Below, piece after piece: positions 36,511 through 42,574 of a stretch of DNA of 64,000 nucleotides (the stretch's first letter is position 1; each line of letters starts with the position of its first letter). Source of the DNA: Bacillota bacterium. GTDB taxonomy: Bacteria > Bacillota_I > Bacilli_A > RF39 > UBA660. The DNA is taken from positions 3,543-67,542 of the forward strand of contig SVAM01000009.1 of assembly GCA_015059425.1 (NCBI GenBank). The letters run 5' to 3'. The notes under the pieces are model-generated. The model made no database searches. It was not told where the DNA came from and was given only the letters and a program-made list of their open reading frames with translations. The position numbers were made by a program, and so were the translations under genes.

Positions 36511-38283
36511 TTAATATCCCTTTCTAACTAAAGTTAAACCTTCGTTTTTCTTATATAATTCTAAATCTTGTTGTTCCAAAATAGTTGCATTAATTTTTCC
36601 GTTATCAGTTCTAGGTAGTGGAGTATAAGTATATTCAATATATCCAGCTAGTGCGCTAGAACCTAAAGTACCTTCAATTAAAACATCTATTTTATTTTTT
36701 AATATTTCAACATTACAATTTTCATCTATTAAACTAATATGATATTTTGGTAGATATTGATATTTATCATCAGGTATTTTAGTTACAGCAACTTCTCTAA
36801 TTTCTGGAAACCGTAATAATAATGCTTCAATTTGTTCCGGATAAATATTATCAACACCCGATACAAAGTTTCTCTTTTTTCTACCAGCAAATTTAAATTC
36901 ATTATTATTTATACCACAACGGATAACTAAATCTCCAGTAGAGTACCATCTTTTGCCGTTTTCATCATTAATAAATACTTTATTAGTTTCATTAATATTA
37001 TCATGATAACCAAGCATCATACCCGGCCCACTAACAATAAGCAAACCAACTTCACCAACAGGTAATTCTTCAAGGTTATATTTTGCATTTGGATTAAAGC
37101 TCTCAAATATTTTTGGATCAACAACTTTTGATTCAACAAATGGTATTGCAAATCCTACAGTACCTGGAGTATTTTTACCACCCATATTAACATGAGTTGG
37201 AGCCCACATTTCAGTTAAACCTAAACCATCCCCAATATAAGCACTTGAGCCGCCAATTCTTAATGCTTCCTCTGCTTGTTTTCTTTTTTCTGGTTTAAAC
37301 ATTTCGCCACCAGATAAAGGCTGGATTAATTCGCTTAAACTTCCTGGCTTAATATTAGGATTACCTATTAATGATTCCCAGTGAATAGGGCCACCCATTG
37401 CGCCATGCGCTTTTGTTCTAGCTAATTCATCATAAAATTTATTAGGTAAAGCATTTAGAGTTAAAGCAAATTGTAAATTTTTACATAAAGCATAGTGTAA
37501 AACTAATCTTCCAAAAACCATATGTCCAAAAGGGATATTACCTAAATGAGTCATACCCGGCTCTAATATTAAAACATTATCTAAAGCTTTAACTACAGAG
37601 TTTAAACCGTTTCCATTTAAGTCAACACCTTTATGAACACCACTGGAACCACCTGTAAACATAATATCAGTTACTTGAGTAGGATCAAATTCTCCTAATT
37701 TTGCATCAACATATTTTCCATTTTTAACAATACTTTTTAAATTATGATCTAAGCCAAAAAGTTTATTACCTTTTTTTAACTGCATAGCACTATAACCAAG
37801 CTTAACAATTGGATTACTAACTGACTCTAAAGGAGAATAAAGAATAGGTGTAATGTTTAATGCTTCACAACTATTTTTAAATTTATCATAAAACATATCA
37901 ACAGAAATAATTTTTTGTGGTCTAACCATTTCTATATCTCTTTGCATTTTATATTCGTTATTCAAAGGACTTAAACCAACTACAGTAGCCCCAATTCTAT
38001 CTAAAGCATAAAGAAGATAAACTGATTCTGGTGTATTAACTACACATACCCCAATAACGTCACCTTGTCTAATTCCGTTGCTATATAAAGCTCTAGTATA
38101 TTCATCTATTCTTTGATGCAATTCTTCATAAGTTATTCTTCTTTTATCAAAAGTAAGCGCAATTTCATTCATATAATCTTTATTTCTTTCATATAAAAAA
38201 TCATATTTAGAAGAGTTAGGTAATTCAGTTTCAACTTCTTTACCAGTATAATTATCAACAAATTTTATTTTTTTATTTTCCAT
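36511..38283 (-). CDS. AMP-dependent synthetase/ligase (acyl-CoA synthetase-like)
   Basis: AMP-binding motif TGGSSGVHKGV and adenylation-domain architecture. Confidence 0.75.
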   Translation of the reverse strand: MENKKIKFVDNYTGKEVETELPNSSKYDFLYERNKDYMNEIALTFDKRRITYEELHQRIDEYTRALYSNGIRQGDVIGVCVVNTPESVYLLYALDRIGATVVGLSPLNNEYKMQRDIEMVRPQKIISVDMFYDKFKNSCEALNITPILYSPLESVSNPIVKLGYSAMQLKKGNKLFGLDHNLKSIVKNGKYVDAKLGEFDPTQVTDIMFTGGSSGVHKGVDLNGNGLNSVVKALDNVLILEPGMTHLGNIPFGHMVFGRLVLHYALCKNLQFALTLNALPNKFYDELARTKAHGAMGGPIHWESLIGNPNIKPGSLSELIQPLSGGEMFKPEKRKQAEEALRIGGSSAYIGDGLGLTEMWAPTHVNMGGKNTPGTVGFAIPFVESKVVDPKIFESFNPNAKYNLEELPVGEVGLLIVSGPGMMLGYHDNINETNKVFINDENGKRWYSTGDLVIRCGINNNEFKFAGRKKRNFVSGVDNIYPEQIEALLLRFPEIREVAVTKIPDDKYQYLPKYHISLIDENCNVEILKNKIDVLIEGTLGSSALAGYIEYTYTPLPRTDNGKINATILEQQDLELYKKNEGLTLVRKGY

Positions 38284-38365
38284 AAATACCTCCCTGTATA
38301 TAAATATTATAAATTAATGAATATTTTAAAGTCAAACAAAATAACAAACTTTTATTAAAAAGTAC

Positions 38366-38393
38366 TTGCATTTATAATATAAAGTGTTATAAT
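38366..38393 (+). promoter_or_regulatory. strong sigma-A promoter upstream of the leader ORF / rel-like gene
   Basis: TTGCAT - 16 nt - extended -10 TGtTATAAT. Confidence 0.55.
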
Positions 38394-38426
38394 GAATAGC
38401 AATATAAGTTTGAAAGGGCGATGTTT

Positions 38427-38531
38427 ATGAAACATTTAAAAACTATTCATTCTATATATGATACAAAAAAAGTTTTAACATGCTTCTGCTGCTGTGTTCT
38501 TTCAACTGTAAAAATAACTGCGACTAAATAG
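38427..38531 (+). CDS. putative Cys-cluster leader peptide (34 aa)
   Basis: MKHLKTIHSIYDTKKVLTCFCCCVLSTVKITATK. RBS aaggg. Stop codon lies inside the terminator hairpin. Confidence 0.3.
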   Translation: MKHLKTIHSIYDTKKVLTCFCCCVLSTVKITATK

Positions 38532-38556
38532 ATTGATTCTGTTTGGTCGCTTTTTT
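38520..38556 (+). terminator. intrinsic terminator/attenuator hairpin 17 nt upstream of the rel-like start
   Basis: gcgac...gtcgc stem followed by ttttttg. Too close to the rel start to leave room for a separate promoter. Confidence 0.5.
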
Positions 38557-38572
38557 GTTAGGAGTGAGGAAT

Positions 38573-40012
38573 ATGAGTAATTTAACAATTGATGATTTAA
38601 TGCAGTTAGTCAGTAATTATAGTACTGAAGAAAAAAAACAAATATTAAAGGCTTACAAACTAGCCTGTGAATTACATCATGGCCAAATGCGTGAAAGTGG
38701 AGAACCATATATAATTCATCCACTTAGTGTTGCCTATATTTTAGCAGAAATGCACGCTGATGCTGATACTATTAGTGCTGGCCTATTACATGATACCATT
38801 GAAGATAGTGATATTACAAAAGAAGATTTAAGAGAAATGTTTAATAAAGATGTAGCGACTTTAGTAGATGGAGTTACAAAATTAGCTAAAATGAATTTTT
38901 CGTCTAAAGAAGATAAGAATGCTGCGAATACTAGAAAGATAATAACAAGTATTACCGATGATGTAAGAATAATTATTATTAAACTAGCAGACAGACTACA
39001 TAATATGAAAACCTTAGAACACAAAAAAAAGTTTAAACAAAAAGAAAATGCATTAGAAACAATGGAAGTATTTGTTCCTCTAGCATACTACATCGGTGCA
39101 TATAGATTGAAAAGTGAATTAGAAGATTTATCACTTAAATATTTAAAACCAGAAGCATATCAAAATATAAGTGAAAAAATAGAGATTATTACCAAAGAAA
39201 ATGATGAATGGTTAAAAGAAATGCTATATAAAATAAAAGTATTATTAGAAGAAAAAAACATTCCTAATGAAATAAAATTTAGAGTAAAAAATGTTTATGG
39301 AGTATATAAAAAATTAGAACACGGATTAAGATTAAATGATATCCATGATTTATTTGCTATAAAAATAATGGTTAAAGAAATAGATGATTGTTATTTAACG
39401 TTATCTAATGTTCATAGATTATACAATCCAATAAATAGAAAATTTAAAGATTACATATGTAACCCTAAAACAAATATGTATCAAAGCTTACATACAACAG
39501 TATTTGCGCCTAATGATACATTAGTCCAAACTCAAATAAGAACATTTGACATGGATAAAATAGATAATTTTGGTCTAACAGCCTACTGGGATATACATAA
39601 TGAAGAAGCAAGAAATGTTATGCAACAAACTTTAAGAGAAAAGTATCAATTTTTCAAATCACTTGTAGAAATAAATAGAGTATTTGGTGATAATAAAGAA
39701 TTTATAAATCAAATAAAAAAAGAATTATTTGGAGGGCAAATCTATGTATATACAACAGATGGAGATATAAAAGAATTTCCTGTTGGAGCAACACTAATAG
39801 ATTTTGCTTATGAAATTCATACAGACATAGGAAATACTTTAATAGGTGGATATGTAAATGATGAATATGTAGGAGTAGATCATGTATTACATAATCAAGA
39901 TAGAGTTAAAGCAGTAACAAATGATTTAGCATTCGGACCAAAACCCGAATGGGAGAGTATTGCAGTAACGACAAAAGCTAAAAGAAGAATAAGAGAATTT
40001 AATAGAAAATAA
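38573..40012 (+). CDS. RelA/SpoT-family (p)ppGpp synthetase/hydrolase, short form (HD, synthetase, TGS; no ACT)
   Basis: HD motif (HPLSVAYIL...LLHDTIED), synthetase motifs (RVKNVYGVYKKL, YQSLHTTV), TGS (GGQIYVYTTDGDIKEFPVGATLIDFAYEIH). Ends at about 480 aa. Confidence 0.8.
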   Translation: MSNLTIDDLMQLVSNYSTEEKKQILKAYKLACELHHGQMRESGEPYIIHPLSVAYILAEMHADADTISAGLLHDTIEDSDITKEDLREMFNKDVATLVDGVTKLAKMNFSSKEDKNAANTRKIITSITDDVRIIIIKLADRLHNMKTLEHKKKFKQKENALETMEVFVPLAYYIGAYRLKSELEDLSLKYLKPEAYQNISEKIEIITKENDEWLKEMLYKIKVLLEEKNIPNEIKFRVKNVYGVYKKLEHGLRLNDIHDLFAIKIMVKEIDDCYLTLSNVHRLYNPINRKFKDYICNPKTNMYQSLHTTVFAPNDTLVQTQIRTFDMDKIDNFGLTAYWDIHNEEARNVMQQTLREKYQFFKSLVEINRVFGDNKEFINQIKKELFGGQIYVYTTDGDIKEFPVGATLIDFAYEIHTDIGNTLIGGYVNDEYVGVDHVLHNQDRVKAVTNDLAFGPKPEWESIAVTTKAKRRIREFNRK

Positions 40013-40029: not shown

Positions 40030-41142
40030 ATGAAAATTGAAAAAATAAAAAAAGGTGATAAAGTAGCAATAGTGAGTTTATCAAGTGGTATTTTAGGAGA
40101 AGAATTTATTAAACACGAATTAGAAATAGGACTTAAAAGATTAAAAGATTATGGACTTATTCCAGTTATAATGCCTAATTCATTAAAGGGTGTTGAGTAT
40201 ATCAAAGAGCATCCAGAAGCTAGAGCAGAAGATTTAAAAAAATCTTTTATAGACCCAGATATTAAAATGGTTATTACAGCAATTGGAGGAAATGATACAT
40301 ATAAAACTATACCATATTTAATGGAAGATAAAGAATTTATAGAAACTGTAAAAAACAACCCAAAAATATTTATTGGATTTTCTGATACCACAGTTAATCA
40401 TCTTATGCTTAACAAAATAGGAATACCTACTTTTTATGGACCAGCCTTTTTAGTAGATATATGTGAGTTAGATAATAATATGTTGCCATATACCGAAAAG
40501 TATTTTTCTATGTTTTTCGAAGACATAAACGAATATGAAATTGCAATAAGTGATTATTGGTATTTAGATAGAACCGATTATAGTGAAAAGGCAATCGGAG
40601 TGCCAAGAACAAAAATGCAAGAAAAACATGACTTTGAATTAATAAATGGAAATGGTATTAAAACAGGAAAATTATTTGGAGGGTGTATAGAATCATTATA
40701 TGATTTATTAACTGGAGAGCGTTATGGTGAAGAAAATATAATTGCAGAAAAATATGAATTAATACCTTCAACAGAAGATTTTAAGGACAAAATATTATTT
40801 ATAGAGACTTCAGAAGAAAAAGCCACTCCTGAAAAACTTGAAAAAATGCTAGAAGAATTTAAAAAAAGAAATATATTTAGTAGTGTTCAAGGAATATTAG
40901 TTGGCAAACCTTGTGACGAAGTATATTATGAAGAATATAAAGAAGTATACAAAAAAGTATTTAAAGGCTTAGACACTCCAGTGCTTTATAATATAAATTT
41001 TGGCCATTCATATCCTAAATGTATTATCCCTTACGATGCCATGGCTACAATAGATTTTGATAATAAAAAAATATCTGTGGATTTAAAAAATATATATGAG
41101 TTGGAAGATAATCATAAAAAAGTACTAACAAAAAACAATTAA
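40030..41142 (+). CDS. S66 LD-carboxypeptidase (LdcA/MccF-like)
   Basis: GDKVAIVSLSSG N-terminal motif and overall S66 architecture. Confidence 0.7.
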   Translation: MKIEKIKKGDKVAIVSLSSGILGEEFIKHELEIGLKRLKDYGLIPVIMPNSLKGVEYIKEHPEARAEDLKKSFIDPDIKMVITAIGGNDTYKTIPYLMEDKEFIETVKNNPKIFIGFSDTTVNHLMLNKIGIPTFYGPAFLVDICELDNNMLPYTEKYFSMFFEDINEYEIAISDYWYLDRTDYSEKAIGVPRTKMQEKHDFELINGNGIKTGKLFGGCIESLYDLLTGERYGEENIIAEKYELIPSTEDFKDKILFIETSEEKATPEKLEKMLEEFKKRNIFSSVQGILVGKPCDEVYYEEYKEVYKKVFKGLDTPVLYNINFGHSYPKCIIPYDAMATIDFDNKKISVDLKNIYELEDNHKKVLTKNN

Positions 41143-41166
41143 ATTGTTTAAAAAGGAGTAGAAAAA

Positions 41167-41841
41167 ATGCATAGTGTATTTTTATCAAAAGCAGAAATAG
41201 GATTTTCGATTATTAAAGAAAGATTAAAAGAAATTGTTGATATAAACTCAAAAGTTGTGATAATACCATGGAGTTTTCCTATAGAAACAGATGAATTCGG
41301 TGTAGAAGAATACTACAAAAATAAAATAGAACCAAAGTATACAAAGCAATTATTAGAAATGGGAATTAAAGAAAAAAATATAAAATACTTAAACTGTTAT
41401 AAAGATTCATTAGAATATATGAAAAAAGAAATTAATTCATCAGATATTTTAGTACTAACTGGAGGTAATCCAGAAATGTTTTATAATAAAGTAGAATCTT
41501 GTGGTTTATTAGATACACTAAAGAATTATAAAAAAATTATTATAGGTTCATCAGCAGGAACAGAATTACAATTAGAAGATTATTTTATAACTGCTAAAAA
41601 TAATTATTATAAAAAGTTTGATTGGTATAAAGGTTTTGGAATAATTAATAATACATTTTTTACGGATGTACACTCTATTAATGATGAAGAATATTTAGAA
41701 CAATTAAAAAATATAACAAAAAATAAAAAGAAAGATGTTTATGCAATATTTGATGATGGTGCTATAATTTATAATAGAATTTCTAATCAAATAGAAACGT
41801 ATGGCAACGTAATAAAATATTCATATAAAGATGTTATGTAA
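41167..41841 (+). CDS. S51 peptidase (dipeptidase E-like)
   Basis: LVLTGGNPEMF...GSSAG motifs of the S51 family. Confidence 0.6.
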   Translation: MHSVFLSKAEIGFSIIKERLKEIVDINSKVVIIPWSFPIETDEFGVEEYYKNKIEPKYTKQLLEMGIKEKNIKYLNCYKDSLEYMKKEINSSDILVLTGGNPEMFYNKVESCGLLDTLKNYKKIIIGSSAGTELQLEDYFITAKNNYYKKFDWYKGFGIINNTFFTDVHSINDEEYLEQLKNITKNKKKDVYAIFDDGAIIYNRISNQIETYGNVIKYSYKDVM

Positions 41842-41866
41842 GAATAAAATTGAAAAGGAGGATTAT

Positions 41867-42574
41867 ATGAAAGTATTTTTAAATGGTGGGGGCTGTGGAA
41901 AACAAACAATTGAAACATATAAAGTAATAAATAAAATAATAGACCATACTAAACCGGTGTTATATATCCCATTAGCTATGGACGAAACTGGTCACCCATA
42001 TGACGATTGTTATAAATGGATTAATGAAGAAATTTCTGTTATTGACATTCCAAATATTGAGATGGTTAGAACGTTTAATGAACTATATGAAAAAGATTTT
42101 AATAATTATTCAATGATATATATAGGTGGAGGAAATACCTATAAATTATTAAAAGGAATTAAAGAAAGTAATTCTTTTAATAAATTCAAAGATTACATTA
42201 TAAATGATGGAATAATATATGGTAGTTCTGCAGGTTCGGTTATTTTTGGTAAAGATATTAACAGCATAGAAATAATGGATAACAATGATGTTTCATTAGA
42301 AGATACTAAAGGGTTTGATATATTAGATGGTAAATCTATATTTGTTCACTATATCAATTATAGATCTAAATTTACTGAAGAAGAAAATAAACAACTAGCT
42401 AAAAAATATACTGATTTTTTAATAAAGTACACAACTAATAATGAACGAGTTATAGCATTTCCTGAAGAAAACTCTATTTTTATAGATGGAGACAATTTTA
42501 AAATGATTGGTAAATCACCATATTATATATTTGAAAATGGTACTAAAGAAAAAATAGATGTAAATAACAATTAA
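41867..42574 (+). CDS. S51 peptidase (dipeptidase E-like), second paralogue
   Basis: IYIGGGNTYKLL...GSSAGSVIFG. RBS aaaggagg. Confidence 0.6.
   Translation: MKVFLNGGGCGKQTIETYKVINKIIDHTKPVLYIPLAMDETGHPYDDCYKWINEEISVIDIPNIEMVRTFNELYEKDFNNYSMIYIGGGNTYKLLKGIKESNSFNKFKDYIINDGIIYGSSAGSVIFGKDINSIEIMDNNDVSLEDTKGFDILDGKSIFVHYINYRSKFTEEENKQLAKKYTDFLIKYTTNNERVIAFPEENSIFIDGDNFKMIGKSPYYIFENGTKEKIDVNNN

Follow-up and report, generated by a model that had tools for sequence, protein, structure and literature searches.

The window analysed here, a 64,000-nucleotide stretch of contig SVAM01000009.1 from a Bacillota bacterium, contains the gene of a RelA/SpoT-like protein (the Rel-like gene, rel) preceded by a short leader that is rich in cysteine (Cys) codons and runs into an intrinsic transcription terminator. 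The next gene upstream, which encodes an AMP-binding enzyme (36511-38283), is divergent; the intergenic region thus constitutes a self-contained promoter and leader, whose elements and target gene are the following, with the leader open reading frame abbreviated to ORF, nucleotides to nt and RelA/SpoT homologue to RSH:

38366..38393, + strand: sigma-A type promoter, read from the sequence, with a probable start site at ~38400
38407..38507, + strand: P1, a long imperfect 5' hairpin predicted by folding, with strands 38407-38444 and 38471-38507
38412..38418, + strand: Shine-Dalgarno (SD) sequence GAAAGGG of the leader ORF, with ATG 38427 located 8 nt downstream
38427..38531, + strand: leader ORF of 34 codons plus TAG, MKHLKTIHSIYDTKKVLTCFCCCVLSTVKITATK, with the TAG at 38529-38531
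38481..38495, + strand: Cys codons TGC-TTC-TGC-TGC-TGT (C-F-C-C-C), with Cys at 38481-38483 and 38487-38495
38508..38519, + strand: A-rich spacer from P1 to the terminator, from sequence and fold
38520..38556, + strand: intrinsic terminator, with a 13-bp stem (38520-38532/38538-38550), a loop of 5 nt and T6 at 38551-38556
38560..40012, + strand: ribosome-binding site (RBS) AGGAG (38560-38564) and Rel-like long RSH gene, ATG 38573, 479 residues, assigned from its Pfam domains

The promoter combines a -35 element TTGCAT (38366-38371), a 16-nt spacer and an extended -10 element TGtTATAAT (38385-38393); its -35 element matches TTGACA at only three of six positions and it is hence not listed by a consensus promoter scan. 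An alternative in-frame ATG at 38421 would lengthen the leader ORF to 36 codons, but the spacing to GAAAGGG is right only for ATG 38427. The leader transcript of 157 nt folds into two hairpins with a free energy of -37.8 kcal/mol (z = -4.9; none of 200 dinucleotide shuffles is as stable). The first of these, P1, carries the leader SD, the AUG and the first codons on its 5' strand, while its 3' strand contains the Cys codons, 27-39 nt 5' of the terminator, and an anti-SD sequence CUUUCAA. The spacer that follows is A-rich, not U-rich; the leader TAG is embedded in the terminator stem, on its 5' arm, and the Rel-like ATG lies 16 nt past the U-tract. The promoter, the 34-codon ORF with its C-F-C-C-C run, the stop codon inside the terminator and the Rel-like ATG had all been described in the first-pass annotation of this DNA and are confirmed at their positions; its view that transcription of the Rel-like gene must pass through the terminator is also supported. 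When both strands of the window are searched for SD-preceded small ORFs (sORFs) with at least three Cys and a T-run after them, the leader is the single instance. A search with Rfam covariance models gave no match at E below 7 in 37500-39500, the nearest matches (E >= 7) being noise, and the same search of the whole window at gathering thresholds gave one tRNA and no other family.

The Rel-like protein has thousands of homologues, the closest 120 of which are 476-483 residues long, share 67-95% identity and are nearly all metagenomic. Locus contexts were gathered by exact look-up and by one metagenome scan with a clade-specific sub-alignment. A scan of a genome collection with the single Rel-like protein gave no matches; the same collection scanned with an alignment returned mainly canonical Rel, taken as the outgroup, together with one clade member (L007) from an ‘uncultured Bacilli bacterium’ metagenome-assembled genome. 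An SD followed by an ATG ORF, with its end 35-80 nt ahead of rel, occurs in 68 of the 72 distinct upstream regions, and these 68 leader loci, which form 40 peptide clusters at <50% identity, keep the order promoter, SD-ORF, terminator, rel. The terminator is found in all 40 clusters (-9.5 to -24 kcal/mol), with ~20-30 nt between its end and the rel ATG, and a TTGACA-like -35 element in 37 of the 40, with the end of the -10 element 31 nt (interquartile range 30-33) before the leader ATG. The peptides themselves vary from 20 to 48 residues and from 0 to 8 Cys, the spacing of which is unconserved. In comparison, a comparable leader occurs in none of 77 canonical long-Rel loci (~700-770 residues) of other bacteria; over 439 kb of clade loci, the sORF search applied to the window returns 49 rel leaders, two more in excluded loci and five elsewhere. 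The unit of Cys leader and terminator is non-random. The first-pass annotation had read it as a translated, promoter-proximal and Cys-rich leader ORF followed by an intrinsic terminator upstream of the Rel-like gene, and had pointed to conservation of the Cys codons and the hairpin before rel orthologues as a check; the 68 related loci that keep the unit bear this reading out.

What is maintained in these leaders is the presence of Cys codons in the translated frame rather than any particular peptide. Cys makes up 8.2% of leader residues versus 0.94% in the long ORFs of the window, an 8.7-fold enrichment (binomial P = 6e-69), with every other amino acid at 1.5-fold or less. TGY triplets number 117 in the leader frame versus 33 and 55 in the other two, and TGC accounts for 62% of leader Cys codons versus 14-17% in genes, the genomes being AT-rich. 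The leader peptide evolves almost neutrally, the ratio of nonsynonymous to synonymous polymorphism (pN/pS) being 0.64 versus 0.11 for rel. Among close relatives, Cys positions are less conserved than the others (76% versus 87%), with swaps that are mostly Y/C, L/C and H/C, and the Cys count per leader nevertheless stays at a median of three despite this positional turnover. In-frame enrichment, turnover and near-neutral evolution of the peptide together point to a sensor leader, not to a functional peptide, and to the Cys codons as its sensing codons, as had been proposed from the window.

A few lineages depart from this pattern. The leader of L104 (1333-1434, about -165 to -66 from rel) contains five His and one Cys; those of L142, L150, L162 and L163, from four clusters, have a common KYYTNT.YSC motif and only one or two Cys; and that of L106, with 20 codons, has none. 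In such deviant leaders the sensed codon may have changed, or the element may be decaying. In L088 (2975-3001), whose Rel is 68% identical, leader and terminator have been lost and rel begins 25 nt past the gene of a UvrD-like helicase. Lastly, comparison with L098 and L158 indicates that the leader of L095 is the L098 sequence with an early stop of frameshift type, 42 nt before the terminator, which makes it the sole leader whose frame falls short of the terminator.

When the window, L001 and L003 were combined into a covariance model, it gave convincing scores only for close relatives, the family being too divergent, and statistics on own-locus versus cross-locus duplexes were therefore used instead. 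By this measure, P1 is a shared feature: pairing of the SD/AUG region with the distal region of the same leader has a mean z of -2.0 across the 40 clusters, own-locus duplexes average -15.1 versus -11.7 kcal/mol for cross-locus ones (P = 2e-8), and compensatory changes are seen among the window, L001 and L003. Complementarity between the two arms of the terminator, which served as the positive control, is locus-specific at P = 6e-26; on such sequence grounds, the terminator is under selection.

An antiterminator of the trp type was sought in several ways and is rejected. Folding of the leader for mutually exclusive terminator and antiterminator structures, which the first-pass annotation had recommended, gave no such pair. 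In minimum free energy folds with a ribosome masked at each Cys codon in turn, the terminator is kept for most of these codons (those more than ~15 nt upstream), and is lost or reduced only with the ribosome at the minority of Cys codons that lie in the hairpin or at most ~15 nt from it. The RNA that precedes the 3' arm (spacer, 5' arm and loop) folds no better than its shuffles, with a mean z of 0.0 over 37 clusters; in L001, a near-identical orthologue of the window, this fold amounts to -0.5 kcal/mol. Locus-specific complementarity of upstream leader segments or of the SD region with either terminator arm is absent (P = 0.49 to 0.92), and pairing of the spacer with a terminator arm is within shuffled expectation. 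The same complementarity approach recovers the arm-arm control.

The position of the leader frame relative to the terminator is by comparison constant. In 39 of 39 clusters the frame is open up to the terminator, versus 46% and 26% for the other two frames of this equally AT-rich sequence; the stop codon falls in the 5' arm in 79% of these 39 clusters and no more than 9 nt short of it in the others, at a median of 26 nt from the 3' end of the hairpin and 31 nt from the end of the U-tract. By our own estimate, the minimal spacing between the ribosomal A site and the 3' end of the nascent RNA is the sum of ~13 nt for the leading edge of the ribosome and ~15 nt held in the polymerase; this is near the observed 31 nt, so that the frame appears to stay open over the whole distance that a coupled ribosome could cover before termination is decided. 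With a ribosome masked at the stop codon, all terminator pairs are gone in 33 of 40 clusters and some in six others, the exception being L095. The Cys codons of the clade leaders, for their part, peak 20-50 nt before the terminator.

The Rel-like protein that lies beyond the terminator is made of HD, RelA_SpoT and TGS domains (Pfam) and ends at residue 479, right after TGS; the C-terminal helical/ZFD/ACT (ACT/RRM) region is absent, the outgroup Rel proteins being ~700-770 residues long. Its best match among solved structures is Bacillus subtilis Rel (6yxa, E = 3e-125), and it shares ~41% identity with Rel from Bacillales loci. The HD hydrolase residues R40, H49, H73-D74, E77-D78 and N144 are invariant in the A1 alignment and align with those of B. 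subtilis Rel. In the synthetase domain, the catalytic Glu is replaced by Gln: Q319 (LVQTQIRT, ~39527-39529) aligns to E324 of 6yxa (PLEVQIRT), and Gln occupies this site in 116 of 117 database homologues (the other having Arg) and in 87 of 87 clade loci, whereas the 77 outgroup Rel loci keep Glu, within E[IV]QIRT in 76 and as EF in one. An E323Q change in RelSeq abolishes synthetase activity, according to the account of Hogg et al. given in PMC13299517, and in B. subtilis the allele normally used for an inactive synthetase is E324V (PMC7098656). With Gln at the catalytic Glu position and no ribosome-binding C-terminal domains, the protein is probably a (p)ppGpp hydrolase only, as judged from these residues; no second gene with a synthetase domain was found by tblastn within the 64-kb window. 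A partial parallel is offered by Acinetobacter baumannii SpoT (PDB 7qpr), a monofunctional hydrolase long RSH; it similarly has an intact HD hydrolase site and a synthetase domain that is retained but catalytically degenerate. Unlike A. baumannii SpoT, the protein described here is of the Firmicute Rel type, is truncated right after TGS and appears degenerate through a single E-to-Q change at the catalytic Glu.

Taken as a whole, the leader is very probably a real ribosome-operated switch. As it combines a stop codon in the terminator with the lack of an antiterminator, its geometry fits direct occlusion of the terminator, with a predicted sign that is the reverse of the usual one, Cys starvation leading to termination; no other arrangement of these features would seem to make a switch. 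We give roughly an even chance to a ribosome-mediated attenuator of this kind, keyed to Cys codons and acting by direct terminator occlusion without an antiterminator. In this scheme, transcription would start ~24 nt before the leader ATG and a ribosome would load on the nascent leader. An undelayed ribosome would pass the Cys codons and, behind RNA polymerase, reach the end of the frame in the 5' terminator arm; sitting on that arm, it would physically prevent the hairpin from forming and polymerase would continue into the Rel-like gene. Should Cys-tRNA(Cys) be scarce, the ribosome would stall 20-50 nt before the terminator, polymerase would run ahead, the hairpin would form and transcription would terminate. 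Were no ribosome loaded in time, P1 would sequester the leader SD and AUG, and the terminator would form again. A shortage of Cys-tRNA would in this manner turn off hydrolase production and let the alarmone accumulate. Precedents for the individual steps come from Escherichia coli, where terminators are almost fully repressed when a stop codon lies within a few nt of the hairpin and termination recovers beyond a stop-hairpin distance of ~27-30 nt or when translation is uncoupled (PMC4824070); likewise, a polyproline stall upstream of the pyrL hairpin brings downstream expression down 26-fold in a delta-efp strain (PMC5021804). Given that the protein is probably a hydrolase only, the sign predicted by occlusion is also physiologically coherent, while the classical sign would induce a hydrolase in starvation.

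The first-pass annotation had proposed ribosome-mediated attenuation keyed to Cys-tRNA, with the geometry of the trp, his and leu leaders. An attenuator with Cys codons stands; the trp-type mechanism and the predicted sign do not, as the stop codon lies within the terminator and the Cys codons lie on the 3' strand of an upstream hairpin, not in a ‘region 1’. The coupling of Cys starvation to alarmone synthesis that it envisaged needs revising as well, the synthetase Glu being a Gln and the protein probably a hydrolase only.

Several points weigh against occlusion as the mechanism. Transcription-translation coupling is presumed for this organism, and B. subtilis, the model for Bacilli, has been reported to transcribe ahead of its ribosomes; if the clade behaves like B. 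subtilis, occlusion would need a polymerase pause and could not work otherwise. The sign of regulation is deduced from geometry alone, and the loss of synthetase activity from a single residue. About 14% of Cys codons are located in the terminator or adjoin it, and a ribosome that stalled at one of these would block the hairpin and invert the sign; L089 has two of its three Cys codons in the 5' arm itself. Thermodynamic and complementarity tests can overlook an antiterminator that is weak or non-canonical. Finally, one Cys codon per leader often falls in a Ser-Cys motif, UCAUGC, which can pair with the region of the leader start codon and of which 17 out of 18 occurrences are in frame, so that the enrichment could in part be an RNA-level constraint.

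This raises the question as to whether the same leader could sense Cys with the classical sign, stalling favouring readthrough via a cryptic or kinetic antiterminator or by steric hindrance, and starvation inducing the Rel-like gene. For every known amino-acid leader attenuator, the cysS and mycobacterial Cys examples among them, induction by starvation has been shown or is presumed (PMC8632094; 10.1101/834739); in E. coli, a ribosome exerts repression up to ~27 nt from the hairpin (PMC4824070), ~40% of the Cys codons are no more than 30 nt away from the hairpin, and a few leaders (L089, L098, L138 and L160) have Cys codons within the terminator arm itself. We nevertheless regard this alternative as unlikely: none of the tests found an antiterminator, the Cys codons peak upstream of the terminator and not at it, and induction of a probable hydrolase by starvation is contrary to the logic of the stringent response. 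Moreover, the frame enters the terminator in every cluster; a coupled ribosome that does not stall would block the hairpin no less effectively than a stalled one, and there would be nothing left to regulate.

A post-transcriptional effect, in which the terminator has a fixed leakiness and stalling at the Cys codons of readthrough transcripts opens P1, protects the 5' end from 5'-exonuclease in the manner of ermC or alters the translation of rel, is quite improbable. It would suit the location of P1 at the extreme 5' end of the transcript, with the Cys codons on one strand, and stalled ribosomes are known to stabilise downstream mRNA in Firmicutes (ermC/ermA). The mycobacterial polycysteine sORF also works at the translational level (10.1101/834739). 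However, pairing between the Cys region and the rel RBS is not locus-specific (-8.0 kcal/mol within loci versus -8.2 across them, P = 0.69), the rel SD is free in the predicted folds, and the exact extension of the open leader frame into the terminator would be left unexplained. A first minimum free energy fold had suggested that the Cys region masks the rel RBS; this was rejected on the same comparison and because P1 takes the place of such pairing once the 5' end of the leader is included.

Although the peptide is hydrophobic and Cys-rich, radical-SAM genes lie near rel in some loci and L088 has a separate Cys-rich sORF beside such a gene, a functional micropeptide (metal-binding, membrane-associated or the precursor of a ribosomally synthesised and post-translationally modified peptide, RiPP) with its own terminator and leaky readthrough into rel is very hard to credit and is rejected on the pN/pS value, the turnover of Cys positions and the unconserved synteny, the peptide varying over 40 clusters with no constant Cys spacing and having no Pfam match, and rel being the sole constant neighbour, with no adjacent radical-SAM gene in the window, L001 or L006.

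Compared with known systems, the closest in layout to the proposed occlusion mechanism is the pyrBI leader (pyrL) of E. coli, which likewise lacks an antiterminator and whose ORF extends to the terminator hairpin (PMC5021804; PMC4824070). There, readthrough needs a ribosome close behind the polymerase to mask the hairpin and a slower ribosome gives more termination, as stated for Roland, Liu and Turnbough (1988) where that work is cited in PMC5021804. While pyrBI senses the speed of the polymerase through UTP-sensitive pausing, what would be sensed here is the speed of the ribosome at Cys codons; the pyrBI ORF spans the whole hairpin, whereas the present one ends inside the 5' arm or the loop. 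A 5' hairpin that sequesters the leader SD and AUG, a low-GC Bacilli host and an RSH target further distinguish the present leader from pyrBI. The leaders of the trp, his, leu, thr and pheA genes resemble it in having a promoter-proximal SD-ORF rich in one codon type, an upstream hairpin and a terminator just before the gene. Unlike in those leaders, no 2:3 antiterminator is detectable here, the upstream hairpin holds the regulatory codons on its 3' strand and the stop codon is in the terminator; the RelA/SpoT homologue is outside the pathway of the sensed amino acid and the sign is likely reversed.

The sensing of Cys-tRNA through stalling in a Cys-rich sORF is shared with the mycobacterial polycysteine sORFs (Canestrari et al., 10.1101/834739), which are leaderless, act on translation by unmasking of the RBS, control Cys/sulfur operons and are induced by Cys limitation (10.1101/834739). 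By contrast, the present leader has an SD, a 5' untranslated region of ~24 nt, an intrinsic terminator and an RSH target, and no RBS-masking duplex. Two candidate upstream ORFs (uORFs) described by Brewer et al. (2021, PMC8632094) are also relevant. The uORFC-8-2 candidate of cysS in Rhodobacterales similarly joins a uORF to a terminator, with tandem Cys codons that are mostly UGC and that lie, as here, on the first of two stems (PMC8632094); the uORFC-13-1 candidate of aroF in Acholeplasma, also a uORF with a terminator, shows that leader-peptide attenuators are predicted in a genus of Mollicutes (PMC8632094). They differ from the present leader in controlling an aminoacyl-tRNA synthetase and a biosynthetic enzyme, respectively, and in being presumed to be induced by starvation, and neither sequence nor Rfam similarity links them to it. 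Actinobacterial amino-acid leaders have been surveyed in PMC1262725.

As for the surroundings of the locus, the minus strand at 38306-38335 holds a near-consensus promoter (TTGACT, an 18-nt spacer and TATAAT) for the AMP-binding gene 36511-38283, which stands back to back with the leader promoter. Genes of peptidase families S66 (LD-carboxypeptidase) and S51 recur beside rel in several loci that are rearranged in other respects; the window has one gene of each family, in tandem after rel, and a 247-residue ORF comes next. These neighbours of rel lie at:

Window, 40030-42574: S66/S51 genes
L001, 4449-5090: S66/S51 genes
L003, 5088-6134: S66/S51 genes
L006, 2112-2750: S66/S51 genes

In L088 (4485-4568) and L103 (1403-1492), a separate sORF, MKENKKAKKVTKVVTVKNSCCTCGSFK, lies just 3' of rel and directly 5' of a radical-SAM gene; sORF and gene look like a RiPP precursor/maturase pair, unrelated to the rel leader.

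Genes of amino-acid biosynthesis and charging are known to have leader-peptide attenuators; in the literature, searched in full text, no leader-peptide attenuator for a gene of the RelA/SpoT family (rel, spoT) was found. If real, the leader would represent a new transcriptional input to alarmone metabolism in abundant uncultured Bacilli of the gut and rumen, keyed to the rarest amino acid, as well as a clean example from nature of an amino acid being sensed through ribosome occlusion alone, made of two hairpins with a stop codon in the terminator and no antiterminator; it yields a prediction, open to test, on how transcription and translation are coupled outside Proteobacteria. The E-to-Q change found throughout the clade, for its part, points to a hydrolase-only, C-terminally truncated Rel in Firmicutes. 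A tentative and more specific proposal, to which we give somewhat less than an even chance, joins these elements into an antiterminator-free ‘coupling sensor’, in which the passage of the pioneer ribosome over a few Cys codons would directly decide terminator formation and so control a long RSH that lacks both the synthetase residue and the C-terminus. If this is true, the sensing of starved ribosomes would have moved from the enzyme, where it is allosteric and takes place on the ribosome, to a cis-acting leader before the hydrolase gene; a shortage of Cys-tRNA would raise (p)ppGpp by shutting off hydrolase synthesis; and a lineage of Bacilli would, unlike B. subtilis, couple transcription tightly to translation.

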